The notes below the pieces were generated by a model that saw only the letters and a list, made by a program, of their open reading frames with translations, was not told the origin of the DNA and ran no database searches. 50,772 bases of DNA from a bacterium (GTDB taxonomy: Bacteria > Zixibacteria > MSB-5A5 > GN15 > FEB-12). Shown here in pieces: positions 8,103 to 28,510 of this stretch; the stretch's first letter is position 1, and the number at the start of each line of letters is the position of its first letter. The stretch is from assembly GCA_024230675.1 (NCBI GenBank), contig JAAERE010000194.1:1-50772 (forward strand). The letters are read 5' to 3'. Position numbers and translations under genes: made by a program.

Positions 8103-8122
8103 ATCTCTTATACTCTCGAGGT

Positions 8123-8641: not shown

Positions 8642-8704
8642 TTTCTATTAAACCTCCCTGTAGGGAATCGAAATACTTAAAGTTCTGTCTTATCCAGTCT
8701 GTCC

Positions 8705-8733
8705 ATTCTAGCAGATACCTAATATAGGGTCAA
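8705..8733 (-). promoter_or_regulatory. internal sigma70-type promoter candidate for pal-cpoB (TTGACC-17-TAGAAT)
   Basis: Reverse strand: TTGACC (8733..8728), a 17-nt spacer, TAGAAT (8710..8705). A T8 tract lies just upstream. Confidence 0.5.
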
Positions 8734-8829
8734 TAAAAAAAACATCTTTCTGGAAGGCAAGAGCTTATACCTGCCTCGCAGGCTTGTTTGCCCTCTTATA
8801 CTTTCCAGCAGGCGGAAGGTTTCTGACCG

Positions 8830-10134: not shown

Positions 10135-10150
10135 GCGGTTTTCTTTCGTC

Positions 10151-10843
10151 CTAGTTGGTAAAGGTGATGGTGATACCTATGATTTCATCCAGGAACTGCC
10201 CAGGCAGCGGAGCAAAGGGTGCCGAGCGTTCCACCGCCGCCACGCAGGCCTCATCGAACTGCTGAAGGCCGGAGGAGCTGTTTACCTTGACCTCTATCAT
10301 GCGGCCGGACTTGATAACCTGGAAATAAACATCGCAGTACACTTTGCCGTCGATCTGGATAGGTATCCGGAAATTCTGATTGAGCTTGTTCCAGGTAAGC
10401 GTGAACCAGTAAGGATAGTTAAACGAGGCGTTGTCGACAGAAACGCCGGAGATAGAAGTCCCCGCAGGGGCCTGGACCTCGGTCTGACTATCGGCAGCCC
10501 CGGTCTGATTGTGTTCGGCCGGCTGTGCCTGTACCGGCGGCGTGACCTCCGGTTTGGGCGGCTCCGGTTCTGGTTCTTTGACAGGTTCCTCGACCTCGAC
10601 CGCTGGTTTGGTTGTAGGATTGTCAATTGGGATTTCTTCGGGCGCCATTGCCATTGCCTGCGGGATCTCCGGCGGGGCGATTACGTTAGGTTGGGCCGGG
10701 GCTATATCGGCCATGCTGACGGCGGTGACCCGGATAACCTCCCCGAATTCCGGAGGGTTCGTGATAGCAAAGGGGGCGGTGAGAAAAGTCAGGCCGACCA
10801 CCGAGAGGTGCAACACTACCGAGAATATGAGATCCTTGCTCAT
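10151..10843 (-). CDS. TolA/TonB-family energy transducer (N-terminal TM anchor, Pro/Glu-rich linker, TonB-C-like domain)
   Basis: TM anchor LIFSVVLHLSVVGLTFL, linker EVEEPVKEPEPEPPKPEVTPP, and a C-terminal domain ending ACVAAVERSAPFAPLP. It occupies the tolA position between tolR and tolB. Confidence 0.8.
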   Translation of the reverse strand: MSKDLIFSVVLHLSVVGLTFLTAPFAITNPPEFGEVIRVTAVSMADIAPAQPNVIAPPEIPQAMAMAPEEIPIDNPTTKPAVEVEEPVKEPEPEPPKPEVTPPVQAQPAEHNQTGAADSQTEVQAPAGTSISGVSVDNASFNYPYWFTLTWNKLNQNFRIPIQIDGKVYCDVYFQVIKSGRMIEVKVNSSSGLQQFDEACVAAVERSAPFAPLPGQFLDEIIGITITFTN

Positions 10844-10867
10844 GTCAGCAGCTTTCGTGACCGACGC

Positions 10868-11287
10868 TCAACGTCCGTTTTCCTCGTGAGCGGTTACCAG
10901 TCCGATCAGGTCTATACCGGCGTCTTTCATACGGCCAATAACGCCAATTGCCATGCCGTAGGCGATAGTGGAGTCACCTCGAAGATAGACCGACTGCGTG
11001 TTCTTGACCGCCATTTCCTGCTGGAGGGCGCTTTCAAAGTTCTCCAGCCGCGTCCAGACGTCGTTGATGAAGATACCGCCCTTTTCGTCGATTGTAACTA
11101 CCACACCGGTAGCCTCTTCATTGAGAACCGCAGCACGAGTGACGGGCAGGTCCACTTCGATTCCCGACTGAAGCAGAGGAGCCGAGATCATGAAAATGAT
11201 CAGGAGCACCAGTACGACATCCACGAGGTTGGCGATATTGATATCGGCCACCGAGTTGTACGGTCTTTGTCGTGGGCGTCGCAGCAT
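10868..11287 (-). CDS. tolR: biopolymer transport protein TolR/ExbD
   Basis: 139 aa with INIANLVDVVLVLLIIFM (ExbD TM) and a periplasmic domain. Its ATG overlaps the tolQ stop (ATGTAATG arrangement). Confidence 0.88.
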   Translation of the reverse strand: MLRRPRQRPYNSVADINIANLVDVVLVLLIIFMISAPLLQSGIEVDLPVTRAAVLNEEATGVVVTIDEKGGIFINDVWTRLENFESALQQEMAVKNTQSVYLRGDSTIAYGMAIGVIGRMKDAGIDLIGLVTAHEENGR

Positions 11288-12006
11288 TACATAGCTTCCT
11301 TCTTGGCGCGGGCGATGAAATCGAGGACAAAACTGAAACCGGAGTTATTGATGTACTTCAGCCGGTTGTTGGCCCAGTTGTATGCGATGACGGCGGGAAT
11401 AGCGGCTCCCAGACCGACGATCGTCGCGAGCAGAGCCTCGGCGATACCCGGCGCGACCACAGCCAGCGAGGCCGAGCCGCGTTCACCAATCGACCAAAAC
11501 GAATCCATGATACCTACAACCGTACCCAGCAGGCCCAGGAAGGGTGCGGAGCTGCCGGTCGTGGCGAGGAATACCACTTTCTTTTCCAGGATACCGGTTT
11601 CATCGTTGAGCCGGCGTTCCATGGCCATCTCGACGAGCTCAAAATCGCTGTCGGTTAGCGCATTGACTCGATCGCTAAGCCCGCCGACCTCATTCCTCAG
11701 GCCCTTAACGGTGTTCAGTTCCTCGAAACCGGACCTGAAAATGTTGGCCAGGGGAGAGTGGCGGTAGGACTGGGCCTGTCCGGCCACTTCGTCGAGTTTT
11801 CGCGCCCGCCGGAAATACTGCATGAAATTCCGGGTGTCGCCGTCGATCGCCCTGAACTGGCGGAATTTCTGGAAAATCACGGTCCAGGAGACCAGGGACA
11901 TGGCCACCAGAATGACCAGGATTATGGCGCCGAAAGTCGACAGTTGGCCAATAATCTGCCACAGCGATCCGGTAGCCAGAAGCACAGAAGTTAAAAGTAT
12001 CGTCAT
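11287..12006 (-). CDS. tolQ: MotA/TolQ/ExbB proton-channel protein TolQ
   Basis: Three TM segments and the conserved block LATTGSSAPFLGLLGTVVGIM..F. The ATG at 12006 gives 239 aa. The ORF-track start at 12072 is a GTG with no SD. Confidence 0.88.
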   Translation of the reverse strand: MTILLTSVLLATGSLWQIIGQLSTFGAIILVILVAMSLVSWTVIFQKFRQFRAIDGDTRNFMQYFRRARKLDEVAGQAQSYRHSPLANIFRSGFEELNTVKGLRNEVGGLSDRVNALTDSDFELVEMAMERRLNDETGILEKKVVFLATTGSSAPFLGLLGTVVGIMDSFWSIGERGSASLAVVAPGIAEALLATIVGLGAAIPAVIAYNWANNRLKYINNSGFSFVLDFIARAKKEAM

Positions 12007-12099
12007 ACTCGTTGTACAACCGTCTGAGTCTAAAAGTTTGTAACACTGTCGTCGAGGGAAAACATTTCCCACAGAGGAAATAACTTATCGGGAAGCGCC

Positions 12100-12602: not shown

Positions 12603-13724
12603 CTAGTCTTCGATCATCTCGACGTTGGCGCGGGGAACCGTCGCGCGCTCGCCGCCGTCGAACTCAACCTCGAGTACACGAGCTTTCGACTCCGATTCCA
12701 AAACGTGCAGCGGCGACGGCAGGTCGGTCACGGCCCCTAGCCTGCCGAAGTACGGGTGGCGAATCACACGGATAGCGGAGCCGATCGTCAGACCGACGAT
12801 CTCACCGCTACCGGCGTCCTCGGTCTTGTCGGCGTCGATCTTCGGAACGACCACTTCGGGGCGTATGACACCGGCGCGAATCTGCGTGGCGCCGTTAATA
12901 CAAGCCATCTCACCCTCGTGATGTTTCAGCAGCTCGAACGTTTTATGGGCCATGTTAATTTCACCAAAACCTTCGGTCACCACCAGCGTAGTGGTCGTGT
13001 CCTCGGATCCGGTAATAGCGACTCCGATATCGTAGCCGAGGAAGTCTCTGAGGTCCTGGTCGTCGAATCCGCCGACCACGATTCCGCGAACACCAGCCTT
13101 GATAGCCTTCTTGAGGCCGTTGGCTGTCACGCGCGAGCCGCCGACTATGATCTTGCCGGCCATGTCCTCGGTTATCAACTTTTCGTTGAGGATCACGGTG
13201 TTGTCCTGCGTGGCTACGTGAAGCGGCCCGTTGGTCTCGCCACCAATACCGAAAATGCCCTGAACGAACGAGCCGGTGCATTTCACCACGACACCTTCGT
13301 TGGGAATGACTTCGGTGACTTCGCCCTGGAGGTACGCCTTGACCTCAACCGGTGAAGGCTCGCCGCGCTGAAGAACCTGCCCAGTGATGCTCGAGATGGA
13401 CTCGATAGTACCGTCGATAGTCGCGTGACAGTAATTCTTGAAGATGAACAAGGTTTTGGACAGTGCGATCTCTTCGCCCTTCTTGATCGGGTCGCCCGGT
13501 TTTTTGAGCATGACCATATCGATGTCTTCGGGCGGAATTCCCAGTTTGTTGGCGATGTTGATCGGCACCACGTTTCCGGGCAGCACCGTACGCGCAACAA
13601 CATCGTCCGGCTTGACCTGATCGCCGACCTTGACAATCACGTCTCCTTTGAGCGGGAGGATGCGGCGCTTTTCCACCAGCTGTTGTTCGGTGACTTTAAG
13701 TCCCGGCGTATATGCGTGGCCCAT
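12603..13724 (-). CDS. hypothetical protein with an N-terminal barrel-sandwich (biotinyl/lipoyl-like hybrid) segment; last gene of the GlmL-like operon
   Basis: 373 aa with a strong SD AAGAGGAG before the ATG at 13724. The N-terminus KGDVIVKVGDQVKPDDVVAR resembles hybrid-barrel motifs. The middle, IIVGGSRVTANGLKKAIKAGVRGIVVGG, looks alpha/beta. Family not recognised. Confidence 0.75.
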   Translation of the reverse strand: MGHAYTPGLKVTEQQLVEKRRILPLKGDVIVKVGDQVKPDDVVARTVLPGNVVPINIANKLGIPPEDIDMVMLKKPGDPIKKGEEIALSKTLFIFKNYCHATIDGTIESISSITGQVLQRGEPSPVEVKAYLQGEVTEVIPNEGVVVKCTGSFVQGIFGIGGETNGPLHVATQDNTVILNEKLITEDMAGKIIVGGSRVTANGLKKAIKAGVRGIVVGGFDDQDLRDFLGYDIGVAITGSEDTTTTLVVTEGFGEINMAHKTFELLKHHEGEMACINGATQIRAGVIRPEVVVPKIDADKTEDAGSGEIVGLTIGSAIRVIRHPYFGRLGAVTDLPSPLHVLESESKARVLEVEFDGGERATVPRANVEMIED

Positions 13725-13782: not shown

Positions 13783-14535
13783 TTACTTTCTTTTTCTCTG
13801 TCGTATCCTGACCATGACGAGGCACAACAGGATCACAGTCAGACCGCCGTACAGGACAAGGTCGTTGGTCGATTCCGAGGACCCCCGGGACTCCAGGTCG
13901 GCGACTTTTACGTCAGCGTCTTCGCTTCCGACCTCTTCGGTCGAGAACGAGGTCAGCATTTCCGAGAACGAGCCCAGCCCCTCTGTGAGCAGGGAGTCCG
14001 GGCCGTAATAGTAGAAATTGGCAATGCCGCGATCGTAAAACCTCTGTACGAGAACGTTCTTCCTCGGGGCGCCGCCCTCTTCGGTGACATCGCTCATGGC
14101 GGCCAGGGTCTGCAACTCGCTGTCGAAGCCGACTATCTCTTCCGACAGGTCAGCGGTCAGCGAGGCCAGCTTTATCTCTTTCAGTTCACGTCCGAGACTC
14201 TGGACAATAACCCCGATCGCCGAGTCAATCTGCGGCTGAGTCAGGGAGCCCGAAGTGTCGATAGTGAGAATTACATAAACGCCTTCAAACACGGACGGCG
14301 AGTCCTTGGCGGCAAAAACCGCCTCGTAGTTGAGATTACCGGTCGCCTGACGGATATAGTAGTCGGCCGTCTGATAGTCCACTTGCTCCCAATTGTCGGG
14401 ACAGCTGATGTGGAAACCGCCGTTGTAGCTGACAAAAGTCTCGGCCAACCCGTTGGCAGTCAGCAGAAACGTCAGAGCCAGCGCCAGATGCAGCCAGTTT
14501 CTTACTATAGACGTTCGTGATCTCATGCTTCGCAT
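13783..14535 (-). CDS. hypothetical exported protein with a C-terminal membrane anchor
   Basis: N-terminal signal peptide (WLHLALALTFLLTANGLA), a ~200-aa soluble part, and a C-terminal TM (LVLYGGLTVILLCLVMV) followed by RIRQRKRK. Confidence 0.7.
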   Translation of the reverse strand: MRSMRSRTSIVRNWLHLALALTFLLTANGLAETFVSYNGGFHISCPDNWEQVDYQTADYYIRQATGNLNYEAVFAAKDSPSVFEGVYVILTIDTSGSLTQPQIDSAIGVIVQSLGRELKEIKLASLTADLSEEIVGFDSELQTLAAMSDVTEEGGAPRKNVLVQRFYDRGIANFYYYGPDSLLTEGLGSFSEMLTSFSTEEVGSEDADVKVADLESRGSSESTNDLVLYGGLTVILLCLVMVRIRQRKRK

Positions 14536-14553: not shown

Positions 14554-16407
14554 CTAGGCCATGGCTTCCTTCGGATAAATGTCCATCTCCGTCATCCACT
14601 TCCTGAGATAGGAAACGCGTTCCTTCTCGTCCAGGGAAGACAGGTCAAACGGACGACCGCGGCCGTCGAGTACGATTCCGACCACGCCGCCGTAGATTTC
14701 GCGGGTGACGGCGTTGCCTTTGCCGCCGCCTATGTCAAAGCCGCGTTCCGGCTCGAAAGTCGCTTTGACCTTAATGGGCAGGCCGTTGTCCTGAACGCCC
14801 AGCTTGAACAGCTTCAGTTCCAGGTAGTCGAGCGTGCCGGACACCGGGCCGTCTGGCATTTCTATCGTGTACTTCATCACCGGGCCGGCTTTTTTAGCCT
14901 GACCCGCTGGGGCGATACAAGTGCCGAGATGAATCAGGCAGTCTTTTTCGAACACTTCGGTAGCCGCTTTGGGCTGTACCTCGGTCAGAACGCCCAACTG
15001 GGGCATCATGAAAATAGAGTCCACGGCCAGGCGGGTGATACCCTCCGGCATAAAAGCGTCCATCATCATGAGAGCCGACTGTTGCCGGCGAGGGGCGTGA
15101 GACAACACACCGCCCGACCCGATGAGCATATCCAGGGTCATCATGTTTACAATCGTCGCGCCGGAGGACGACTGCTCGAAAGCATCGGCGATAGTCCGCT
15201 GCTGCTGCACGCCTTTCAACACCGTGGCAAAAGACTTGTGCTGCACAAACGCGAGGCGCAGAGCCTCCTTGGCGATCGCCTGCTCGAATATCAACTCTTC
15301 CATCGACTGCGGTATCGTAGTCGGACGGATCATTTTGTTTTTTACGCGGTTGCGGAGGTCGCGCTCGTCCATTTCAAAAGGCACCCAGCGCATAACCATC
15401 GGTAGCGTAGCCTCGGCGAACACGTTTGAGATCGAGTAAGACATGCCCAGGTTAGCTGACACCGTCCGGTTGAATTCGCCGTTGGTGCCGTCGGGGCGGA
15501 AAACCGAGAAGACGTCGGTAGTGGCGCCGCCGATGTCAACCCCGACCGCCTCAATACCGTACTGGTCGGCGATAGTCTGAATAATAAGGCCCACGGCGCC
15601 GGGGGTCGGCATAATCGGGGCGTCGGCCCAGGACATCAGCTTCTTGTAGCCGGGGGCCTGCGCCATGACGTGTTCCATGAAAAGCTCGTGGATTTCTTCA
15701 CGGGCCGGAGCCAGGTTTTCCAATTCCAATACCGGTCGCAGGTTGTCGACGGTGCGAAGATCCACTTTGTCGGCGAGAACGTCGGACACCAATTTGGCTG
15801 CATCTTTGTTTCCGGCGTAGATGATTGGAAGTTGATAGCTGGAACCTAGACGGGGACGAGGGTCGGCTGCCGATATTAATTCGGCAAGTTCGACGACGTG
15901 AGTGGTGGTGCCGCCGTCGATACCCCCCGAAAGCAGGAGCATGTCGGGGCGCAGTTGGCGAATGCGCTCGATCTGCTGGTGCGGCAGGCGCTTGTCGTTG
16001 GAGGCAATTACGTCCATCACGATAGCGCCGGCGCCCAGAGCGGCACGCTCGGCCGATTCCGCCGTCATGGAACGAACCACACCGGCCACCATCATCTGGA
16101 GACCGCCACCGGCCGAGGAGGTGGAGATGTAGACGTCGGTGCCGTTCTTCCCGTTGGCCGGGGAGATGAACTTGCCGTCTTCGTCCAACAGCTTGCGTCC
16201 GGAGAGTTCTTCCAGCTCACCCACTGCGTTCAAAACGCCCATCGTCACGTCTTCGAAAGGAGCTTCCACGGTCGTGGGAGCTTCGCCGCGCGACATGAGA
16301 CGATACTCGCCGTTGACGAATTCGATGAGAATCGCTTTAGTGGTAGTGGAGCCACAGTCGGTGGCCACAATTACTTTGATGTCATGTGCATTTTCAAACT
16401 TTGCCAT
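14554..16407 (-). CDS. GlmL/MutL-family protein (actin/Hsp70-fold ASKHA superfamily), 617 aa
   Basis: N-terminal phosphate-1-like motif VIVATDCGSTTTKAILIE. Then SSAGGGLQMMVAGVV..TAESAERAALGAGA and LLLSGGIDGGT, as in the clostridial glutamate mutase accessory protein GlmL. It is longer than the classical ~460-aa GlmL. Confidence 0.75.
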   Translation of the reverse strand: MAKFENAHDIKVIVATDCGSTTTKAILIEFVNGEYRLMSRGEAPTTVEAPFEDVTMGVLNAVGELEELSGRKLLDEDGKFISPANGKNGTDVYISTSSAGGGLQMMVAGVVRSMTAESAERAALGAGAIVMDVIASNDKRLPHQQIERIRQLRPDMLLLSGGIDGGTTTHVVELAELISAADPRPRLGSSYQLPIIYAGNKDAAKLVSDVLADKVDLRTVDNLRPVLELENLAPAREEIHELFMEHVMAQAPGYKKLMSWADAPIMPTPGAVGLIIQTIADQYGIEAVGVDIGGATTDVFSVFRPDGTNGEFNRTVSANLGMSYSISNVFAEATLPMVMRWVPFEMDERDLRNRVKNKMIRPTTIPQSMEELIFEQAIAKEALRLAFVQHKSFATVLKGVQQQRTIADAFEQSSSGATIVNMMTLDMLIGSGGVLSHAPRRQQSALMMMDAFMPEGITRLAVDSIFMMPQLGVLTEVQPKAATEVFEKDCLIHLGTCIAPAGQAKKAGPVMKYTIEMPDGPVSGTLDYLELKLFKLGVQDNGLPIKVKATFEPERGFDIGGGKGNAVTREIYGGVVGIVLDGRGRPFDLSSLDEKERVSYLRKWMTEMDIYPKEAMA

Positions 16408-16518
16408 CTTGCTCTCGCTTTAGAAGCCTTTGTCTTGCGTTCTCGCTAGTCTCTTGTCTCCCAAGAGGCTATGTGCCTCGTTGCGGACCGGATACGAGAA
16501 TTCAGCATTCGGACGGGG

Positions 16519-16547
16519 ATTATAATACAATGTGACAGGCTTGTAAA
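16519..16547 (-). promoter_or_regulatory. sigma70-type promoter candidate for the GlmL-like operon (TTTACA-17-TATAAT)
   Basis: Reverse strand: TTTACA (16547..16542), an exactly 17-nt spacer, consensus TATAAT (16524..16519). It would leave a leader of about 100 nt before the ATG at 16407. Confidence 0.55.
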
Positions 16548-16801
16548 GAGTCATTTTCCCCGCGACCGCAGACCCCCGGCTCACAGTCCCTTAGGGAGTA
16601 CGATCGGTCCCGGATCGGGTCCTCTGATGGCTTTGCGTCGTTGGGGTCATCTGACAAGCCGGGAGTTCTGAGCGGTGTAACATCGACTGATCAGTATTTG
16701 ATGGCACTGCAATGATTAGCGCATCGGGTGGGAGGGTTTGTCGTGTGTTCTCGTAACCGACAGCGGGGGAGTGAGTTGGCTGGTGGGCGCCATTTTTTCG
16801 C

Positions 16802-16830
16802 TTGACTTGCCTTAACGGGCCCGGTAGATT
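16802..16830 (+). promoter_or_regulatory. sigma70-type promoter candidate for the 12-gene operon (GCTTGACT-17-TAGATT)
   Basis: TTGACT at 16802..16807, a 17-nt spacer, TAGATT at 16825..16830. Confidence 0.4.
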
Positions 16831-16873
16831 GCCTGATCTTCTTGAGACCCCTTCGCTTATGGGGCTCTTGAGG

Positions 16874-16902
16874 TTGCCGGGTTTTCCCCGGTTTCGTATA
16901 AT
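16874..16902 (+). promoter_or_regulatory. sigma70-type promoter candidate for the 12-gene operon (TTGCCG-17-TATAAT)
   Basis: TTGCCG at 16874..16879, a 17-nt spacer containing the small palindrome CCGGGTTTTCCCCGG, and consensus TATAAT at 16897..16902. It lies about 100 nt upstream of gene A1. Confidence 0.45.
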
Positions 16903-17017
16903 ATGATTTGATAGCCCGCAGGTTGTTTCGTCACTTCTGAGACACTGAAACAGTTCGCACTTTTGACGGGCAGCTTGGCTTACAACCGGGGAAGAGGATT
17001 TGGATATTTACAGACAG

Positions 17018-18259
17018 ATGTCTCACCGCAGGTGTTCTGCGATGTGCTCCCTCGCCCTTGTTGTCCTCATTTTCATTCTGACAATCGGAAACGCTCTCGC
17101 CCAGGAGGAAGTCCTTCCGCCGGATTCGACGGCCGTCGTTGAAGAGGCCGCCTACGCTCAGCCGGTCCTCAACCTTCAGGCAGAAGACAAGCCCAACGAC
17201 GCCGGCGGTGCCGTGCGAGTCTCCTGGGATGTGTCTACCGATGACGACGGTGATGGCGGTATCATAGGGTATACGATTTATCGAGGAACGGCGGCTGCCG
17301 GTCCGTACGAAGTCGTAGGCCAGGTGCCTTCCGGAAAGTCAGATTTTGATGACGGCAACACGGCAGACAGCCTCACTTACTATTACAAAGTGATTGCGAT
17401 GAACGACGCCTTGTTTAGCGCCGGAGTGACCGAGGTCGAAATGGCCCTGGCGACGACCGCAGGTCCGGTGCAGTCCTCGGAGCAATGGTTTGATTTTCGT
17501 CGTATCAACGTCTTTGCCGGCACCCTGCTGCTCAGCTTCCTTATCATCTTCATGATTTCCCGGGCCAAAGCGGGCAAGAAGCTATTTATCCGCAAGATAG
17601 CCGGTATGGAGGCGGTCGATGAGGCCGTCGGGCGCGCCACGGAGATGGGCAAAAAGATATTCTACGTGCCCGGTATCAACGACATGGACAACGTGCAGAC
17701 AATCGCCAGCATGACGATTCTCGGGCGTGTCGCCGAACTGGCCGGGCAGTACGACACCTGGCTGGAAGTCCCGGTCTGTCGTTCGCTGGTGATGGTAACG
17801 GCCAAGGAAGTGGTCAAAGAAGCTTACACCAAGGTCGGTCGGCCGGACTCATTCCAGGAGAATCAGGTCCATTACCTGACCGATGACCAGTTTGGGTATG
17901 CGGCGGCTATCGACGGCATGGTTGTCCGCGAAAAGCCGGCGACAATTTTCTATATGGGGGCGTTCTTCGCTGAATCGCTGATTCTGGCTGAGACGGGTAA
18001 CGCCACCGGCGCAATTCAAATTGCCGGCACAGCGATGCCCTCACAGCTTCCGTTCTTTGTTGCTTCGTGTGACTACACGCTCATCGGCGAGGAGCTGTTT
18101 GCGGCTTCCGCGTATTTGTCCCGAGAGCCGAAATTGCTCGGTTCGCTAAAAGGGCAGGATATGGGCAAGGCAATTATCCTGGTTTCAATGGTAGTGGGTA
18201 TCATTTTGGAGACATTTGGTATCTGGGAATTCTCACAGTTATTCTCGGTGATTGAATAG
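17018..18259 (+). CDS. cassette 1, family A: signal peptide, FN3-like periplasmic domain, TM, conserved ~200-aa module, C-terminal TM (uncharacterised)
   Basis: FN3-like pattern PVLNLQAEDK..GGAVRVSWDVS..IIGYTIYRG..LTYYYKVIAMND, then TM VFAGTLLLSFLIIFMI. Conserved block KKLFIRKIAGMEAVDEAVGRATEMG...FFAESLILAETG...CDYTLIGEELFAASAYL. Paralogs at 20557 and 24286. The ATG at 17018 gives a clean signal peptide; an alternative TTG start lies at 17000. Confidence 0.85.
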   Translation: MSHRRCSAMCSLALVVLIFILTIGNALAQEEVLPPDSTAVVEEAAYAQPVLNLQAEDKPNDAGGAVRVSWDVSTDDDGDGGIIGYTIYRGTAAAGPYEVVGQVPSGKSDFDDGNTADSLTYYYKVIAMNDALFSAGVTEVEMALATTAGPVQSSEQWFDFRRINVFAGTLLLSFLIIFMISRAKAGKKLFIRKIAGMEAVDEAVGRATEMGKKIFYVPGINDMDNVQTIASMTILGRVAELAGQYDTWLEVPVCRSLVMVTAKEVVKEAYTKVGRPDSFQENQVHYLTDDQFGYAAAIDGMVVREKPATIFYMGAFFAESLILAETGNATGAIQIAGTAMPSQLPFFVASCDYTLIGEELFAASAYLSREPKLLGSLKGQDMGKAIILVSMVVGIILETFGIWEFSQLFSVIE

Positions 18260-18261
18260 TT

Positions 18262-18909
18262 ATGCGCAGAGAGATACCCCTTCTGATAACAGCAATTGCC
18301 GGCGTAGTTTTCGTCGTTCAGTATTTCATTCCTCATTCCCCTTTTAATCATCTTGACGGCTGGTTTTCTGACTGGTTCTCGATTGTCCAGGCCTGCGCTA
18401 TTGTGCTTGGATCGCTGAACCTGCTGATGATCTCGAGTCAGAAGATAGCGAGAAAGAAAGAGGGATGGGGCTACGCTGTCGTGATAATCGTGTCGTTTTT
18501 CCTCATCACGATTATCGGGTTTGCCGGAGGCGAGGAATTCCGCGATGTCGGCACCGGCTTTGATTGGCTCTACAATTACACTTACGTGCCGCTGTCGTCG
18601 ACGATGTACGCCATCCTGGCGTTTTTCGTGGCATCGGCTTCGTACCGGGCCTTCAGGGCTCGCAACGCGGAAGCAACCCTGCTGTTGCTGGCCGCGTTTT
18701 TTGTGATGCTGGGGCGGGTACCGATCGGGGATCTGTTGACAATGTGGATGCCGGAAGGTTTCCGCATGTCGAACCTGGCGACGTGGATCATGGATTTCCC
18801 GCAGACAGCCGGTCAGCGCGCCATTATGATAGGCATCGCGCTCGGCCTGGTCTCGACTTCCCTGAGAGTGATTCTCGGTATCGAACGTTCACATCTGGGA
18901 GGTGAATAA
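18262..18909 (+). CDS. cassette 1, family B: ~6-TM integral membrane protein (uncharacterised)
   Basis: Starts 2 nt after the A1 stop. Conserved blocks STMYAILAFFVASASYRAFRARNAEATLLLLAAF and AGQRAIMIGIALGLVSTSLRVILGIERSHLGG are shared with 21821 and 25898. Confidence 0.85.
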   Translation: MRREIPLLITAIAGVVFVVQYFIPHSPFNHLDGWFSDWFSIVQACAIVLGSLNLLMISSQKIARKKEGWGYAVVIIVSFFLITIIGFAGGEEFRDVGTGFDWLYNYTYVPLSSTMYAILAFFVASASYRAFRARNAEATLLLLAAFFVMLGRVPIGDLLTMWMPEGFRMSNLATWIMDFPQTAGQRAIMIGIALGLVSTSLRVILGIERSHLGGE

Positions 18910-19933: not shown

Positions 19934-20557
19934 ATGGAACATTTTGGACTCTGGGTTGGTGCATTCCTGACTCTGGGAATTTACTCTTTCCTATACCGTG
20001 ACAACGCCTGGTATAAGCTGTGCGAAGCCATTTTTATCGGCATTTCGGCCGGGTACTGGGTGGTAATTCTCTTCTGGGATAACTTTTACGGCAAGTTTTG
20101 GATCGGTCGCGAAGAAGAGCCTATGCTCTGGGTGGGCGCCGCTCTTGGCGTGCTGATGCTCTGCCGACTGGTTCCCAGGATCGGCTGGATTTCACGCTGG
20201 CCACTGGCGTTTATCGTGGGCGCAACCGCCGGGCTGTGGATGATGAACTACTTCTCATCCAACATCATGGCTCAGGTGCAGAGCACTATCATGCCGCTCC
20301 TCGGCGAAGGCTACAGTGCCTCGTTTGGCGAGATAGTCGGCAATTTTGTAATCGCCGTTGGCACGTTCGCAGGACTGATATATTTCTATTTCTCAAAAGA
20401 ACACAAAGGAGCCTTCGGAGCTACGGCTCGCTTAGGCATTTGGGTAATCATGATCACCTTCGGCGCCTCGTTTGGCTATACGGTCATGAGCCGTATGTCT
20501 TTGCTGATCGGGCGCATCGACTTCTTACTGGGTGACTGGCTGGGGCTGATTCAATAG
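19934..20557 (+). CDS. cassette 1, family D: ~6-TM integral membrane protein (uncharacterised)
   Basis: Conserved blocks FLTLGIYSFLYRDN.WYK..E, SRWPLAFIVG, GLIYFYFSKEH.GAFG and GIWVIMITFGASFGYTVM. The stop TAG (20555..20557) overlaps the GTG start of A2 by 1 nt. Confidence 0.85.
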   Translation: MEHFGLWVGAFLTLGIYSFLYRDNAWYKLCEAIFIGISAGYWVVILFWDNFYGKFWIGREEEPMLWVGAALGVLMLCRLVPRIGWISRWPLAFIVGATAGLWMMNYFSSNIMAQVQSTIMPLLGEGYSASFGEIVGNFVIAVGTFAGLIYFYFSKEHKGAFGATARLGIWVIMITFGASFGYTVMSRMSLLIGRIDFLLGDWLGLIQ

Positions 20558-21813
20558 TGATTGTCGAACCCCAACAAGCCCGGGTTGTGATCCCGGGCAC
20601 CGTCCGATTCCTCCTGTTAGCCTTTCTGGCCGTGGTCGTGAGTATAACCAGTACTGCCACCGCTTCCGAACCCAACGCCGACTCAACTCTTCTTGAAACC
20701 CAGCAAGTCGAACCCGTGACTTCGCTAGTCGCGCAGGATTTCAAATACGACAACGGCGAACGCATTGAACTGTTCTGGGTGCCTTCGGTCGACGACCGTC
20801 TGGTCGACGGGCTGGTGACGGGCTATGAAGTGTATCGCACCGTCAACGAGGGCGATCCTCAGAGACTGGCGATTCTGCCGCCCGGCGCAAACACGTTCCG
20901 CGACGAGGCAGCCGAAATCGACAGCGTTTATTCGTACTATATTACTACGCTCGCCGAAGAGACCAGCGCCAAGTCTGTGGCCACCGAGCCGATGACCTCC
21001 GAGAGGGAGTGGCTGAATAGAGATCGTGGCTATCTGTTCCTGATCGCATTTGTCATTGCTGCGGCCGTGATCTTTTTTGTTGAGACGGCCAAGCGGGGAA
21101 AGAAGCTTTTCATTCGCAAGATCGCCGGACTGGAAGCTATCGATGACGCCGTGGGGCGCGCTACTGAGATGGGCCGACCGGTCCTCTTCGTGCCGGGGAT
21201 TCATGACATGGACGATGTCCAGACGCTGGCGGCCCTGACGATCCTCGGCCGCGTTTCCCGTACGATTGCCGACTACGATTCCAAGATTTTCATGCCGGTA
21301 TCACGCTCGCTGGTGATGACGGCCGCGCGCGAAACTATAAAGTCGTCCTATATGGCCGCTGGTCGCCCCGATGCCTACAACGACGACATGGTCAATTACG
21401 TGACCGACGAGCAATTCGGTTACGTGGCGTCGGTCGATGGTCTCATTGTCCGTGAGAAACCAGCCACGATATTCCTGCTCGGGGCCTTTTTTGCGGAATC
21501 GCTCATATTGGCTGAGACTGGAAACTCCGTCGGTGCGATTCAGATAGCGGGCACCGCCCGTCCGGCGCAGTTGCCGTTTTTTATAGCCGCTTGTGACTTT
21601 ACGCTGATCGGCGAGGAGCTGTTTGCAGCCTCGGCCTATCTCTCGGATGAACCAAAACAATTGGGGTCGCTCAAAGGACAGGACGTAGGCAAAGGTATCG
21701 CTATGTTCTTTGTGATCGCCGGTACGGTAGCGGCGACCATCTCCTACGCATGGGATATTGGCCCTGTGAACGATGTGCTGGATTGGCTTAACCAGGTATT
21801 TTCATCGAATTGA
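20557..21813 (+). CDS. cassette 2, family A: signal peptide, FN3-like domain, TM, conserved module, C-terminal TM (uncharacterised)
   Basis: FN3-like ERIELFWVPS..VTGYEVYR..SVYSYYITTLAEE. Conserved block KKLFIRKIAGLEAIDDAVGRATEMG...FFAESLILAETG...CDFTLIGEELFAASAYL. By my ungapped by-eye alignment, about two-thirds of positions match A1 across the conserved module. Confidence 0.85.
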   Translation: MIVEPQQARVVIPGTVRFLLLAFLAVVVSITSTATASEPNADSTLLETQQVEPVTSLVAQDFKYDNGERIELFWVPSVDDRLVDGLVTGYEVYRTVNEGDPQRLAILPPGANTFRDEAAEIDSVYSYYITTLAEETSAKSVATEPMTSEREWLNRDRGYLFLIAFVIAAAVIFFVETAKRGKKLFIRKIAGLEAIDDAVGRATEMGRPVLFVPGIHDMDDVQTLAALTILGRVSRTIADYDSKIFMPVSRSLVMTAARETIKSSYMAAGRPDAYNDDMVNYVTDEQFGYVASVDGLIVREKPATIFLLGAFFAESLILAETGNSVGAIQIAGTARPAQLPFFIAACDFTLIGEELFAASAYLSDEPKQLGSLKGQDVGKGIAMFFVIAGTVAATISYAWDIGPVNDVLDWLNQVFSSN

Positions 21814-21820
21814 TTAGACT

Positions 21821-22498
21821 ATGAAGCGACAAATACCTCTCTTAATTACGTTTTTCGTCGGCACCCTGCTGATCATATCGGTATTCGTGCCGCCGCTGGG
21901 TGACCTTGAGAGAGACTTCACACTCTTTTTTGATATCATAGCTGTTTTCGCATTTTTCCTGGGCGGTGGAAACCTTCTGAGGATTCACCTTATGAAGCTG
22001 GCCAACCGCCGCAAGGACTGGGGTTTTTCGGCGGTCACCGTGTCCGGCTTCTTGTTCATGCTGGCCATAGGACTGTTCAAAGTCGGCAATCCCGGCGGTA
22101 TAGCGGAGGCTGTCGACGCCGAGGGCTCGTGGTTCAAGGTGATGTTCGACAACGTCATCAATCCGCTACAGTCGACTATGTACTCACTGTTGGCGTTTTT
22201 TGTGGCCTCGGCCTCTTATCGTGCTTTCCGAGCCAAAAACCGCGAAGCCACTATGTTGCTGATCGCCGCATTCATCATTCTGCTGGGGCGCACGCCACTG
22301 GGAGTAATGTTAACCGGCTGGATACCCGAGTGGATGTCGGTGGCCCAGATACCTAATCTGGCCGTCTGGATAATGAACTCGCCGAACCTGGCCGGTCAGC
22401 GTGCTATCATGATTGGAATCAGTCTCGGCGTTATAGCGACCTCGTTGAGGCTCATCCTCGGCGTGGAACGGTCGTACCTGGGAGGTGACAGTGACTAA
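21821..22498 (+). CDS. cassette 2, family B: ~6-TM integral membrane protein (uncharacterised)
   Basis: Contains MKRQIPLLITFF..., STMYSLLAFFVASASYRAFRAKNREATMLLIAAF and AGQRAIMIGISLGVIATSLRLILGVERSYLGG. Confidence 0.85.
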   Translation: MKRQIPLLITFFVGTLLIISVFVPPLGDLERDFTLFFDIIAVFAFFLGGGNLLRIHLMKLANRRKDWGFSAVTVSGFLFMLAIGLFKVGNPGGIAEAVDAEGSWFKVMFDNVINPLQSTMYSLLAFFVASASYRAFRAKNREATMLLIAAFIILLGRTPLGVMLTGWIPEWMSVAQIPNLAVWIMNSPNLAGQRAIMIGISLGVIATSLRLILGVERSYLGGDSD

Positions 22499-23408
22499 CA
22501 TCGGTGTCATCCTTACCCTGATTGTGATATTCGGCGGCCTGCTGTGGCTGCTGGTACGCTCTATCAGCGGTCGTGAAGTAGACCGCCGCATTATTTTCCT
22601 GTTCATTTTCGTCTCGGTCGCGGCGCCGATTATTTTCCAGATTACATTCAAGGAGCGAGCCACTCCGGTGGTCGAGGCGCTTTTCGCGAATATCGACGGT
22701 CTCCCGGCGGGCTCCAAGGTCCTCATATCTTTCGATTTCGATCCGGCGATGGCGCCCGAGGTGCAGCCGATGGCCAACGCCATGTCGCGGCACTGTCTCG
22801 AGAAGGGTCACAAGATCGTGTTTATGTCTCTCTGGGCGACGGGTCAGTCACTAATGACCACCACTTTGAGCAGAGTTATTCTGCCTGAGTTCCCCGAGAA
22901 GGTCAACGGTGTGGACTATGTCAACGTCGGCTACAAAGCCGGCAATGAGGGCGTGCTGAACGTCATCGTATCAGATTTCAAGAAGATGTTCCCCACCGAC
23001 GTCAATGGAGTGCCGCTCGATTCCACTCAGCTTTTCCGCGACATTCGCAGTTGCGCTGATCTCGATCTGATCATTGCCCTTGGCGGTGGCAGACCCGGTC
23101 CCAAAGAATGGGTCCTGTTCGTCGGTGATCCGGCCGATGTCCCGGTAGGCGTAGGCGTGGCGGCTGTCGTAGCACCGCAGTTGTACCCGTACTTCCCGCA
23201 GCAGATTGTCGGCATCCTGGGCGGTGTCAAGGGCGCGGCGGAGTACGAGCAGTTGTTGATCGCCACCCACGATCGTTTTGTTGATATGGAGACGCCGGGC
23301 ATCGACATGATGGGGCCGCAGACACTGGCCCACGTAGTTATCATGGCTTTCATCGTGATAGGCAACATTGCTTTCTTCCGCAGTCGTTCGAAGGGAGGCA
23401 GCAAATGA
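22491..23408 (+). CDS. cassette 2, family C: membrane-tethered periplasmic-domain protein (uncharacterised)
   Basis: The GTG at 22491 lies 5 nt after GGAGG (alternative GTG at 22485) and overlaps the end of B2. Contains GSKVLISFDFDPAMAPEVQPMA, GVDYVNVGYKAGNE and YPYF..QIVGILGG, plus a C-terminal TM AHVVIMAFIVIGNIAFF. Confidence 0.85.
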   Translation: MTNIGVILTLIVIFGGLLWLLVRSISGREVDRRIIFLFIFVSVAAPIIFQITFKERATPVVEALFANIDGLPAGSKVLISFDFDPAMAPEVQPMANAMSRHCLEKGHKIVFMSLWATGQSLMTTTLSRVILPEFPEKVNGVDYVNVGYKAGNEGVLNVIVSDFKKMFPTDVNGVPLDSTQLFRDIRSCADLDLIIALGGGRPGPKEWVLFVGDPADVPVGVGVAAVVAPQLYPYFPQQIVGILGGVKGAAEYEQLLIATHDRFVDMETPGIDMMGPQTLAHVVIMAFIVIGNIAFFRSRSKGGSK

Positions 23409-24256
23409 GCCGAACGGCTGTTATCGTGTTCGCCGGCGTAGTGGCGCTTTTTGTTGTCAGTTGGATGGTTAAGGCCATGGTTCTGGCAGATGTCTCCGAG
23501 ACCAACATCGTGGACGCTTTCATGGTGACCGTGGCGGCTTTTCTAACTCTGGCCATTTACTCTTTCCTCTACAAAGACAATCCCTATTACAAATTCGCCG
23601 AACACCTTTTTGTTGGTGTGTCGGCCGCTTTCTGGATGGTTCAGGGGTTCTGGACGACAATCGTCGGCAACCTTCTGCCGCGTCTTTCCGAAGGACTGGC
23701 TACCTGGTTCCAGCAGCCCTATCAGGGCGGTGGCTACGATCTGGGAGTTTTTGTTTTTCCATATTCGATCATGTACTGGATCCCGGTGATTCTCGGCTCG
23801 CTGTTACTGATGCGTCTATCGCCTCAGGGAGGCTGGTTGTCCCGCTGGCCGCTGGCACTGATTGTTGGTACGACCGCCGGTCTTAACTTCGTAAGGTACC
23901 TTCGCTCTGACTTCATCGTACAGGTGGCGGCGACGTTTGTACCTCTGTTTGGCCGTGACCCGCACCCCTGGCAGGGCTTCGGTCACTTCTTTTCCAACCT
24001 GGACCTCTCGGCTTCGGGCCAGTTTGTGGCTCTTCTGTCGAACTGGGTTATTTTCATTGGCGTATTCTGTGGCTTGATCTACTTCTTCTTCTCCAAGGAG
24101 CACACCGGGGCGTTTGGGAAAGCCTCCCGTGTGGGAATCTGGATTTTGATGATAACGTTCGGCGCCTCGTTTGGATATACGGTCATGGGCCGAATATCGC
24201 TCCTGGTGGGACGCCTGACGTTCCTGTTTAGAGACTGGTTGGGGCTGATTAGTTAA
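23405..24256 (+). CDS. cassette 2, family D: integral membrane protein with an extra N-terminal TM (uncharacterised)
   Basis: The ATG overlaps the C2 stop (ATGA) and follows the SD GGGAGG. Contains FLTLAIYSFLYKDNPYYKFAEH, SRWPLALIVG, GLIYFFFSKEHTGAFG and GIWILMITFGASFGYTVM. Confidence 0.85.
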   Translation: MSRTAVIVFAGVVALFVVSWMVKAMVLADVSETNIVDAFMVTVAAFLTLAIYSFLYKDNPYYKFAEHLFVGVSAAFWMVQGFWTTIVGNLLPRLSEGLATWFQQPYQGGGYDLGVFVFPYSIMYWIPVILGSLLLMRLSPQGGWLSRWPLALIVGTTAGLNFVRYLRSDFIVQVAATFVPLFGRDPHPWQGFGHFFSNLDLSASGQFVALLSNWVIFIGVFCGLIYFFFSKEHTGAFGKASRVGIWILMITFGASFGYTVMGRISLLVGRLTFLFRDWLGLIS

Positions 24257-24285: not shown

Positions 24286-25884
24286 ATGAGATTTTTGTTC
24301 GGACTAACTGTAATCCTGGCCCTGCTCCTGGGGGCGAGCGTTTCGGCGCAAACCGAACCGCCCGTCACAGATTCAGTAGCAGACTCGGTCGAGGTGCCGG
24401 CGATACCACCGCCAGCGCCGGTTACGGATCTCAAGGCTCTTGATACCGACGACGACCACGGTCATTCGGTTACGCTTACGTGGACGAAATCGGTCGACGC
24501 CCAGACGGGGCAGAACACCGTAAACGGACACCAAATCTTCCGGTGGTACCCGGCGATGATGGACTCTTTGGCGGGCGTGGATTCTCTTAAGAATATGCGT
24601 CAGGATATCCAGAGGGCACAGTCGGCCAACTCGGTATTCAGGAGAGCCCTGGGCGTGGCCGAGGACGCCCTTGAGGATCTCACCAGCGGCGGACGGGGTT
24701 TCGACGCCCTGCGCTTCACCGTGGCGACGCCGCAAGATGACAGCACTTTTGTCCTCGACCGCGCTTTTGTCGAGCAGGCGCTCAGGGACACTGTCGCCAC
24801 TATGACGACGCACCTGCCTCTGCTTCCGGACAGCATAAAGGGCCTGCAGGCCTCTTTCGAGGCCGCCATTGAGAGGCTGACCGAGGCCCATCAGGCGTAT
24901 CCTGAGGGAGGTAGCTGGAATCTGGTCGGCCTGGCTGCCAAAGGTGACACTTCCTTCGTTAATTCCGGGAACAAAGATCCAATGTCGGGTGACTTCATCA
25001 AGGATTTCACCGATCTTTACTATCGCGTCGACGTGGTGACCATCGATGAGACGATTCGAACCGAGTCCGCCATCGTCGGTCCGGTGCAAAGCGAAGGCCA
25101 GTGGTTCAACGGCGGACGCTTCCCGGTCTTTTGGGCCGTCATCATATTCGGCTTCCTCACCATGTACTTCGTAAGCCGGGCCAGAAAAGGGGACGACCTG
25201 TACGTCCGTCCGCTGGCCGGTATCGAGGCTGTTGACGACGCTATCGGTCGTGCCACGGAAATGGGCCGCCCGATTCTCTACGTGCTCGGTCTGGGTACGG
25301 CTGCCGATGTTGCCACGATCGCCTCGTTTACGGTTCTGGGACGTGTGGCCAAACAGGTGGCCGAGTACCAGACGGAGTTGATTGTGCCGACTTACGATCC
25401 GATCGTTATGTCGGTGGCCCAGGAGGTAGTCAAATCCTCCTATCTTGACGCCGGTCGTCCCGATGACTACAAAGAAAACACTGTCTTCTTCGTTACGAAT
25501 CTTCAGTTCGCATATGTGGCCGCCGTCAACGGCATCATGCTTCGCGAGCTGCCGGCGACCAATATTTACATGGGCAAGTTCTTCGCCGAGTCTCTGTTGC
25601 TGGCGGAAACGGGTGCTCTGGCCGGCTCGATTCAGATAGCCGGCACCGACGAGATCGCACAAATTCCGTTCTTCATTGTGGCCTGTGACTACACGCTTAT
25701 CGGTGAGGAGCTATACGCCGCTTCCGCCTACCTGGGGCGCGAGCCGATTTTACTCGGATCGCTCAAAGCTCAGGACTGGGCCAAAGCGGCGGTGATCGTG
25801 TTGGGCATCGTCGGACTAGTAGCCGCCAATCTCGAATGGGGATTCGCGAAAACATTCCTTGAATATTTTCACGTAACCAACTAG
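24286..25884 (+). CDS. cassette 3, family A: as A1/A2, but the FN3-like domain is split by a ~120-aa helical insertion (uncharacterised)
   Basis: Signal peptide MRFLFGLTVILALLLGASVSA. First FN3-like half is VTLTWTKSV..GHQIFRW. The insertion spans about residues 89-209. Second half is WNLVGLA..DLYYRVDVVTID. Conserved module LAGIEAVDDAIGRATEMG...FFAESLLLAETG...CDYTLIGEELYAASAYL. Confidence 0.85.
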   Translation: MRFLFGLTVILALLLGASVSAQTEPPVTDSVADSVEVPAIPPPAPVTDLKALDTDDDHGHSVTLTWTKSVDAQTGQNTVNGHQIFRWYPAMMDSLAGVDSLKNMRQDIQRAQSANSVFRRALGVAEDALEDLTSGGRGFDALRFTVATPQDDSTFVLDRAFVEQALRDTVATMTTHLPLLPDSIKGLQASFEAAIERLTEAHQAYPEGGSWNLVGLAAKGDTSFVNSGNKDPMSGDFIKDFTDLYYRVDVVTIDETIRTESAIVGPVQSEGQWFNGGRFPVFWAVIIFGFLTMYFVSRARKGDDLYVRPLAGIEAVDDAIGRATEMGRPILYVLGLGTAADVATIASFTVLGRVAKQVAEYQTELIVPTYDPIVMSVAQEVVKSSYLDAGRPDDYKENTVFFVTNLQFAYVAAVNGIMLRELPATNIYMGKFFAESLLLAETGALAGSIQIAGTDEIAQIPFFIVACDYTLIGEELYAASAYLGREPILLGSLKAQDWAKAAVIVLGIVGLVAANLEWGFAKTFLEYFHVTN

Positions 25885-28451: not shown

Positions 28452-28478
28452 AGTCGACTGACTCATATTGAACTCAAG

Positions 28479-28510
28479 AATCCCGCTTCTTCGGAGGCGG
28501 GATTTTTTTT
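28479..28510 (+). terminator. strong intrinsic terminator closing the 12-gene operon
   Basis: Stem AATCCCGCTTC / GAGGCGGGATT (one G-U pair), TTCG tetraloop, then a T8 run (28503..28510). It lies 28 nt after the D3 stop. Confidence 0.85.

Follow-up and report, generated by a model that had tools for sequence, protein, structure and literature searches.

A tripled four-gene membrane cassette in a Zixibacteria contig and the likely cytoplasmic location of its DUF6754 module

Contig JAAERE010000194.1 of a Zixibacteria genome assembly (GCA_024230675.1), analysed over its positions 1 to 50,772 and referred to here as the window, carries three tandem copies of a four-gene cassette, A-B-C-D, whose first gene, A1, encodes a protein with a periplasmic-type head and a strongly conserved module (Table 1). 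The module is the Pfam domain DUF6754 (PF20539), and its invariant part is most likely cytoplasmic and not a membrane-embedded ion channel, as judged from hydropathy, charge distribution, conservation and structure models. In the anatomy favored here, to which we assign a probability of about one half, DUF6754 would be a cytoplasmic, membrane-stapled α/β domain of an inner-membrane complex formed by A, B, C and D. A preliminary description of A1 had proposed instead that its conserved glutamates, like the carboxylates of stators and transporters, sit in apolar transmembrane (TM) helices and mark an ion-coupled core. The glutamate motifs, however, lie between the genuine TM helices, and A1 has no match in Pfam or NCBIfam to ExbD, MotB, MotA_ExbB or any transporter family.

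The open reading frame (ORF) of A1 spans 17000/17018-18259 on the forward strand, with candidate starts at TTG 17000, ATG 17018 and ATG 17042; the second of these was taken in the preliminary description, and the 405-residue database copy (P0001) begins at the third. Its N-terminal hydrophobic region terminates in ...GNALA|QEE. Further along the protein, GPVQSSEQWF occupies residues 149-158, directly before a hydrophobic helix, and the basic cluster SRAKAGKKLFIRK corresponds to residues 182-194. Every feature that had been listed for A1 (signal peptide, fibronectin type III (FN3)-like pattern, GPVQS..QWF, TM helix, basic cluster, glutamate motifs and C-terminal TM helix) is present, and alignment bears out that A2 and A3 follow the same layout, A3 with an insertion of ~120 residues in its head. 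The by-eye estimate that two-thirds of the module is identical between A1 and A2 was accurate (133 of 199 positions over residues 192-390, or 67%), and the identity between A1 and A3 over the same residues is 59%. The heads, which had been called poorly conserved, are 26-28% identical between paralogs.

All three A proteins cover the whole DUF6754 model, with E values of 1e-124 (A1), 4e-120 (A2) and 2e-114 (A3) and scores of 415, 400 and 382 bits against a gathering score of 27 bits. The match spans model positions 2-256 of 257 and A1 residues 154-408, such that the Pfam model merges TM1, the cytoplasmic domain and TM2. The family exists as a name, without function, structure or paper, and its members are labelled "DUF6754 domain-containing" or "fibronectin type III domain-containing" by NCBI and JGI; A1 is thus a new member of a catalogued, wholly uncharacterised domain family. 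A word-index search yielded at least 8000 homologs of A1, with every scored candidate at E <1e-3, and an exhaustive search of representatives at 50% identity places subunit A in 2169 clusters. No NCBIfam model matches the A module, sequence and profile searches of the PDB with A returned no relative of the module and only FN3 matches for the head, and literature searches on DUF6754, MutL (PF13941) and GlmL gave nothing relevant.

Conservation was computed by column over 134 distant cluster representatives. Glu319, Glu325, Glu358 and Glu359, the acidic residues that had been called invariant, are at least 98% conserved in this set. They belong to a group of 39 positions with invariance of 98% or more, among them R192, R206, E209, Q334, Q343, C351, D352, D381 and K384. 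Mean column identity is lowest in the two TM helices (0.37 and 0.46), rises to 0.66 over residues 186-305 and reaches 0.81 over residues 306-372, the segment that contains the glutamate motifs.

Only three segments of A1 attain the hydrophobicity of a TM helix (Kyte-Doolittle scale, 19-residue window, threshold 1.6), namely the signal peptide, residues 160-185 and residues 379-405. The glutamate stretches have a mean of ~1.1 in the same window, as calculated by hand. The wording "conserved glutamates inside hydrophobic stretches" was therefore right as to conservation but overstated as to hydrophobicity, which is moderate. On a Hessa-type scale applied by hand, insertion energies are -2 to +1 for the three hydrophobic helices versus +4 to +8 for the best windows of the glutamate motifs, with about +5.7 for the FFAESLILAETG motif; the latter energies equal those of ordinary buried segments elsewhere in the soluble domain. 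The carboxylates at positions 209, 319, 325, 352, 358 and 359 all fall outside the helices at 160-185 and 379-405. Four Lys or Arg residues directly follow TM1 of A1 versus none before it (0-1 across A1-A3), and basic residues also cluster directly before TM2 in A1, A2 and A3. By the positive-inside rule, this distribution agrees with the earlier suggestion that the basic cluster places the following domain in the cytoplasm. Because Lys and Arg are concentrated after TM1 and before TM2, we infer that the module of ~190 residues resides on the cytoplasmic side.

Two AlphaFold runs on A1, one of the full-length protein and one of the module only, provide a provisional view of its fold. The module-only model (predicted template modelling score 0.65) displays TM1, five β-α units and TM2 in succession. 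Strands are predicted at residues ~214-218, 249-253, 284-286, 309-313 and 332-334, and short helices at 318-325 (AESLILAE), 341-350 and 356-368 (GEELFAASAYLS), the last of which is followed by TM2. The predicted local distance difference test (pLDDT) score is 77-95 over residues ~205-290. Both glutamate motifs are modelled in helices that follow β-strands of a parallel α/β domain; since these helices are 8-13 residues long and alternate with strands, they would not be transmembrane.

Upstream of TM1, residues ~50-152 are modelled as a β-sandwich with a pLDDT of ~90. A Foldseek search of the PDB with the full-length model finds FN3 domains or FN3-containing proteins in almost all of the top 50 matches (E ~1e-5, probability 1.0), and a profile search gives weak matches to FN3 chains in the PDB (E 0.003-0.03). 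The Pfam fn3 sequence model, in contrast, does not match A1 at E values up to 1. The head thus appears FN3-like by fold and divergent in sequence, and the earlier recognition of an FN3-like head holds at the level of the predicted fold. Among the 50%-identity representatives, the DUF6754 module is always C-terminal and is preceded by ~30 to ~720 residues. Inspection and Pfam scans show that these N-terminal parts have no head, one to at least six FN3-like repeats, or a BamB-like (PQQ_2) β-propeller, and that headless versions, in which core and cassette are complete, are common. Across lineages with differing heads, the core keeps 50-78% identity; the previously proposed combination of variable heads and an invariant core is accordingly sound, whereas its ion-coupled character is not supported. 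The propeller heads replace FN3 in representatives P0132, P0137, P0145 and P0152, and P0144 carries an extension of ~155 residues beyond the last TM helix. In A3 (24286-25884), the inserted ~120 residues (~95-215) interrupt the FN3-like head and are absent from A1 and A2; the insertion, expected from its sequence to be helical, differs in length among A3 orthologs (406-634 residues).

The gene order A-B-C-D is a highly conserved feature of the system. Among loci fetched from GTDB species representatives, 92 were informative (3.2 kb or more of gap-free sequence on the downstream side of A), and the order is kept in 90 of them; both exceptions are extra, orphan A paralogs. The cassette occurs in more than 12 phyla, mostly uncultured, which by record titles include Zixibacteria, WOR-3, Stahlbacteria, Coatesbacteria, Fermentibacteria, Aegiribacteria, Eisenbacteria, Latescibacteria, Cloacimonadota, Marinimicrobia, Gemmatimonadota, Planctomycetota, Acidobacteriota, Armatimonadota and others. 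The locus closest to the window is 86% identical. Two or three tandem cassettes are typical of Zixibacteria and one of most other phyla; duplication involves whole cassettes and never single genes. Because whole cassettes duplicate and every subunit is 40-60% identical across phyla, we infer that A to D form an obligate hetero-oligomeric complex of four proteins. Orphan DUF6754 genes without adjoining B-C-D occur at loci L047 and L049, the former in a genome that also has a full cassette (L075). At loci L011, L014, L020 and L021, cassettes are broken by 100-N scaffold gaps, and the truncated cassettes in the metagenome-assembled genome (MAG) records concerned, which are labelled "chromosome" (CP070824, CP070756 and CP070674), are for that reason assembly artefacts. 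Cultured Planctomycetaceae also hold parts of the system: Thalassoglobus neptunius KOR42 (L255) and Planctomicrobium sp. SH661 (L268) have A next to the neighboring gene X described below, and a Gimesia MAG (L248) carries the array M-X-A-B-C-D, in which M is a GlmL-like gene.

Within the window, paralogous subunits are 29-48% (B), 31-39% (C) and 36-46% (D) identical. The intergenic gaps from A1 to D3 are at most 30 nt or are overlaps, with one promoter-like site upstream and one strong terminator-like hairpin downstream, so that A1-D3 looks like a single 12-gene operon. In C1-C3, the pattern of basic residues is the reverse of that in A: the Lys/Arg-rich ends would be cytoplasmic, and a conserved domain of ~220 residues between two TM helices would be periplasmic. 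Extra helices distinguish individual paralogs, with two inserted in B3 (~residues 93-146), one C-terminal in D3, two N-terminal in C1 and one N-terminal in D2. Neither B, C nor D has a significant match in Pfam (as single sequences, and for C and D also member by member), NCBIfam, PADLOC or PDB profiles. The best transporter-family match across A, B, C and D in Pfam, NCBIfam and the PDB is MrpF at a non-significant E of 0.59, and the Pfam annotation of a Latescibacteria locus gives "-" for B, C, D and X. Internal pseudo-symmetry, by which the A module would resemble the C domain and B would resemble D, was rejected at hhalign probabilities below 1%. The GlmL-like gene and A1 are separated by a divergent intergenic region of unusual length (590 bp; 16408-17017), which holds the promoter candidate; an Rfam scan detects no family there nor anywhere in the window. 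A Lys/Arg-rich ORF of 115 residues (28865-29212, forward strand) lies between the operon terminator and a pyruvate phosphate dikinase gene (29362-32169).

Divergent from A1 are genes for a GlmL/MutL-like ATPase of the ASKHA fold (M), a membrane-anchored protein of 250 residues and the soluble protein X. The ATPase falls under the NCBIfam cut-offs for GlmL (234 vs 475 bits), Or-4 (218 vs 600) and glmL_fam (171 vs 204), and PDB sequence and profile searches with it gave nothing significant. Across phyla, X shows 52-64% identity, with numerous invariant motifs. It matches Biotin_lipoyl weakly in 11 of 13 members and RnfC_N in 8 of 13, as well as KOW and NqrA_N, and has no PDB relative in sequence or profile searches. 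A role for X as a biotin or lipoyl carrier was rejected, as the hairpin has no invariant Lys.

In 56 of the first 125 loci, the cassette is flanked by the ATPase, by X or by both, which run either divergently as in the window or co-directionally as M-X-A-B-C-D; X is directly upstream of A in many phyla. Of 78 loci centered on X, most have M ahead of X, and about half have A-D after or alongside it. Latescibacteria keep X-A-B-C-D without M and Thalassoglobus keeps X-A without B-C-D; X and A are thus the most tightly linked partners in gene order, which suggests that X may dock on the cytoplasmic DUF6754 domain. The 250-residue protein occurs only where the GlmL-like and X genes diverge from A, mostly in Zixibacteria; it has hydrophobic N- and C-termini, is only 29-39% conserved and matches no Pfam or NCBIfam family. 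Two small proteins, x11 (~140 residues, with hydrophobic segments near the N-terminus) and s117 (~115-165 residues, with a basic C-terminus), are conserved beside the system in several phyla other than Zixibacteria (loci L080, L090, L091, L100, L119, L122, L123, L071 and L074); the window encodes no homolog of either. Their usual place is upstream of the GlmL-like gene, although they are directly upstream of A in L122 and L123, and s117 follows D in L071 and L074. An anti-phage defence system was considered and rejected, since PADLOC matches none of A1, B1, C1, D1, X, the 250-residue protein and the GlmL-like protein. Import of the cofactor B12, an idea drawn from GlmL and from neighboring genes for a TonB-dependent receptor and ExbBD, is unsupported, as neither the window nor any of 10 diverse loci has a match to a cobalamin riboswitch.

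Genes of envelope function recur in the wider context. Directly beyond X in the window lies a complete Tol-Pal cluster (7311-12072, reverse strand). In WOR-3 and Stahlbacteria (L066, L072, L084 and L094), the genes that follow the cassette encode a DUF4388 protein, a further three to four small proteins lacking annotation, and ExbB-ExbD(-ExbD); in Fermentibacteria and Aegiribacteria (L080, L090 and L091), they encode a TonB-dependent receptor with a CarboxypepD_reg domain and ExbB/ExbD. With TolQ/TolR or ExbB/ExbD encoded beside the system, the real stators of the MotA/ExbB type are therefore separate genes. The proximity of Tol-Pal or ExbBD, which is recurrent and not universal, together with the periplasmic heads and the periplasmic domain of C, points to an envelope-directed role.

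Comparisons with characterised systems delimit what the cassette resembles. Like MotB, ExbD and TolR, A is a bitopic inner-membrane protein with a periplasmic domain and invariant carboxylates, and real TolQ/TolR or ExbB/ExbD are often nearby. In stators, a single conserved Asp resides in the one conserved TM helix and the cytoplasmic part is minimal. In A, by contrast, the TM helices are the least conserved portions and the carboxylates appear, by hydropathy and a low-confidence model, to lie in a cytoplasmic domain of ~190 residues. The Rnf and Na+-NQR complexes likewise have two subunits of ~200 residues with about six TM helices, a third that has a periplasmic domain and one that is peripheral and cytoplasmic, and the weak RnfC_N and NqrA_N matches of X are reminiscent of them. 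However, no Cys clusters or flavin-attachment motifs are seen in the alignments, Pfam gives no Rnf-Nqr match, and an Rnf/Nqr-like complex was rejected on hhalign comparisons of B, D and C with Escherichia coli RsxA, RsxE and RsxG (0.2-0.4%). For X and E. coli RsxC, hhalign finds only a 41-residue hairpin at a probability of 12%.

The nearest functional analogies are probably MlaFEDB and the MacB/LolCDE/FtsEX group, which combine polytopic subunits, a large periplasmic domain, a small cytoplasmic α/β accessory domain and an ATPase, and which act on the envelope. This likeness is one of architecture and of possible working only: the system has no ABC ATPase, MCE, FtsX or STAS match, and its candidate ATPase has the ASKHA (GlmL-like) fold. 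The ATPase gene, for its part, belongs to the broader Pfam MutL family along with GlmL/MutL of B12-dependent mutases, yet its product has a C-terminal extension of ~130 residues, adjoins no mutase genes and is paired with X and A-D. A HAD-like DxDxT reading of DMDNVQT after strand β1 was rejected, as both Asp residues are absent in A3 and are not conserved in the family. Sequence, profile and fold comparisons, the last of modest quality, thus show no likeness of the system to anything characterised, although negative searches of this kind may miss a remote relationship.

These features can be assembled into a tentative model. A1 would be a hairpin-anchored inner-membrane protein whose FN3-like head is periplasmic after cleavage of the signal peptide. 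TM helix 1 would cross inward, the DUF6754 core (~186-378) would form a cytoplasmic parallel α/β (Rossmann-like) domain, and the second, poorly conserved TM helix would bring a short tail back to the periplasm. In the predicted fold, E209, E319, E325, D352, E358, E359, Q334, Q343, R192, R206 and C351 fall in loops or helix starts that follow β-strands. Such loops are the usual ligand-, metal- or partner-binding edge of folds of this kind, and the invariant loops of A1, rich in carboxylates, Gln and Gly, probably form a site of that sort rather than an intramembrane ion path. A would be joined in the complex by B, with about six hydrophobic segments, by C, a mirror image of A, and by the polytopic D. 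Our best guess at function, held with less confidence than the anatomy, is that DUF6754 may be the cytoplasmic coupling or catalytic site of an envelope-directed inner-membrane machine, such as a transporter or an assembly or transmission device. A to D would probably work with soluble X and the GlmL-like ASKHA ATPase, and the variable heads could act as periplasmic adaptors. More tentatively, and with a probability that we place well short of even, A-D, X and the ATPase may constitute an unrecognised envelope-spanning machine that is powered via DUF6754 rather than by an ABC ATPase or a stator, with interchangeable heads that aim it at different envelope targets and with three specialised copies in Zixibacteria.

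Several observations weigh against this interpretation. The region of the glutamates (residues 292-372) is the weakest part of the models, with pLDDT values of 32-51 in the full-length run and 51-60 in the module-only run, and it could be buried among subunits B and D. Comparison of the module-only model with known folds, a check that the preliminary description had proposed, recovers the parallel α/β pattern but no specific known fold: the Foldseek matches are all of a generic Rossmann-like kind, with a best E of 0.1 and TM-scores no higher than 0.3, and the fold class is consequently assigned from the pattern of secondary structure. The physical association of A, B, C and D with one another and with X and the ATPase is suggested by gene order alone, and the last two do not adjoin the cassette everywhere: about half of the X-centered loci have no A-D within 6 kb. 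Thalassoglobus has the order FtsY-X-A with B-C-D not adjacent. Searches of the window and of 10 diverse loci revealed no riboswitch of any kind, and no substrate or cofactor motif was found for the system.

The weakness of the models at residues ~306-372 bears most directly on the possibility that this segment lies within the membrane, where its re-entrant or short helices would pack against B and D, and that its glutamates form the proton or sodium path of a stator- or transporter-like machine. It is the most conserved stretch of the protein (0.81), contains four invariant Glu residues and one invariant Asp, is moderately hydrophobic and has polytopic membrane proteins as partners in B and D; the lack of a confident monomer model is what would be expected if those partners were needed for folding. 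We nevertheless consider an ion path unlikely. The hydrophobicity of the segment is below the TM threshold, its insertion energies of +4 to +8 are like those of soluble buried segments, its predicted helices of 8-13 residues alternate with β-strands, and cytoplasmic sequence rich in Lys and Arg flanks it on both sides. Similarity to ExbD, MotB, TolR, MotA or antiporter families is absent, and genuine TolQ/TolR are encoded separately in the window. A membrane-tethered enzyme, in which DUF6754 would be a metal-dependent transferase or hydrolase that works at the inner leaflet on a lipid-linked precursor of the envelope, with B and D as a conduit and C handling the periplasmic product, accounts for several of the same features. 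Its invariance is as high as that of an enzyme; the predicted β-strands are followed by invariant carboxylates, by loops rich in Gly (ETGxxxGAIQIAGT) and by a single invariant Cys; two helices tether the domain to the membrane; and the gene context is related to the envelope. This explanation seems improbable to us, however, given that neither sequence nor fold matches a glycosyl-, phospho- or acyl-transferase, that the DxD-like DMD after strand β1 is not conserved in the family, and that genes for sugar nucleotides or lipid biosynthesis are not consistently adjacent.

A variable ectodomain joined to an invariant cytoplasmic module is also typical of receptors, and FN3 domains and β-propellers are binding scaffolds. 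Conceivably, then, the head could sense an envelope or extracellular cue that the cytoplasmic domain transmits, with B-D as accessories. Yet headless versions with the full core and cassette are common, and Pfam and NCBIfam reveal no signalling domain, whether kinase, cyclase, HAMP, PAS or another. The recurrent neighbors include no response regulator or transcription factor, except for the DUF4388 protein in WOR-3 and Stahlbacteria, and three more invariant membrane or periplasmic subunits, with 40-60% identity across phyla, suit a machine better; a transmembrane receptor is accordingly very improbable. The remaining alternative concerns the partners rather than DUF6754 itself. The GlmL-like ATPase and X might be an independent module, for example a reactivase pair for a cofactor enzyme, that is tied to A-D by synteny only. 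At many loci, no A-D cassette is found within 6 kb of the ATPase-X pair or of a lone X; in WOR-3, A-D adjoin other genes and X is encoded at a different place; and GlmL relatives elsewhere accompany B12-dependent mutases, as NCBIfam model names indicate. On the other hand, X repeatedly adjoins A in Planctomycetota, Acidobacteriota, Eisenbacteria, Latescibacteria, Fermentibacteria and Marinimicrobia, and does so in both orientations, the phyla listed for X are those listed for A, and no mutase genes lie beside the ATPase or X. An independent module is thus a real if minor possibility.

Table 1. Features of A1, the A-B-C-D cassettes and neighboring genes in the window
Feature	Position	Strand	Description
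TolQ	11287-12072	-	Tol-Pal cluster
TolR	10868-11287	-	Tol-Pal cluster; matches ExbD at 3e-23
TolA/TonB_C-like protein	10151-10843	-	Tol-Pal cluster
TolB	8830-10134	-	Tol-Pal cluster
Pal/OmpA-like protein	8123-8641	-	Tol-Pal cluster; long poly-Pro linker
CpoB-like TPR protein	7311-8102	-	Tol-Pal cluster
X	12603-13724	-	Soluble, 373 residues; weak barrel-sandwich-hybrid N-terminus, KOW-like C-terminus
250-residue membrane-anchored protein	13783-14535	-	Between GlmL-like gene and X
GlmL/MutL-like ASKHA-fold ATPase (M)	14554-16407	-	617 residues; divergent from A1; Pfam MutL E 3e-128
Sigma-70-like promoter candidate	16874-16902	+	TTGCCG-17-TATAAT; 10/12 consensus matches; consensus match only
A1	17018-18259	+	413 residues; signal peptide, FN3-like head, TM, putative cytoplasmic DUF6754 module, TM; ORF, Pfam DUF6754
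A1 signal-peptide-like segment	17018-17119	+	Residues 1-34; RR, hydrophobic core, ALA|QE; hydropathy and direct sequence reading
A1 FN3-like periplasmic head	17159-17473	+	Residues ~48-152; AlphaFold, Foldseek, PDB profile matches
A1 TM helix 1	17495-17572	+	Residues 160-185; hydropathy, AlphaFold; conserved juxtamembrane W157/R162 precede
A1 invariant, probably cytoplasmic α/β domain (DUF6754 core)	17573-18151	+	Residues 186-378; predicted β-α repeats, conservation
FFAESLILAETG motif (E319, E325)	17963-17998	+	Residues 316-327; invariant; predicted end of strand β4 and 8-residue helix
LIGEELFAASAYL motif (E358, E359)	18080-18118	+	Residues 355-367; invariant; predicted 13-residue helix, pLDDT ~53
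A1 TM helix 2	18152-18232	+	Residues 379-405; hydropathy, Lys/Arg pattern; poorly conserved (0.46); short, probably periplasmic tail after
B1	18262-18909	+	215 residues; about six hydrophobic segments
C1	18902-19921	+	339 residues; TM helices, ~220-residue, probably periplasmic α/β-type domain, C-terminal TM helix
D1	19934-20557	+	207 residues; polytopic membrane protein
A2	20557-21813	+	A1 paralog; module 67% identical
B2	21821-22498	+	48% identical to B1
C2	22485-23408	+	39% identical to C1
D2	23405-24256	+	46% identical to D1
A3	24286-25884	+	532 residues; A paralog with ~120-residue head insertion
B3	25898-26713	+	Two extra hydrophobic helices
C3	26725-27606	+	ORF, hydropathy
D3	27609-28451	+	Extra C-terminal hydrophobic helix
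Intrinsic-terminator-like hairpin	28476-28507	+	14-bp stem and T run; downstream of 12 genes

For the conserved glutamates, the analysis replaces the proposed ion path with what is probably a cytoplasmic binding or catalytic site. For B, C, D and X there is neither a family model nor a solved or recognisable structure, and no paper describes them. Because the subunits are 40-60% identical across more than a dozen phyla, the strong constraint on them implies an important and probably envelope-related function in lineages that are dominant in sediment, soil and ocean but have barely been cultured, and the cultured Planctomycetes that carry parts of the system are candidate experimental hosts. 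If A-D, X and the ATPase do form a machine, it would be widespread in the FCB and PVC groups, Acidobacteriota and many candidate phyla. A new transport or assembly machine of this kind would supply a missing component of models of the diderm envelope outside Proteobacteria and would give DUF6754 a role.

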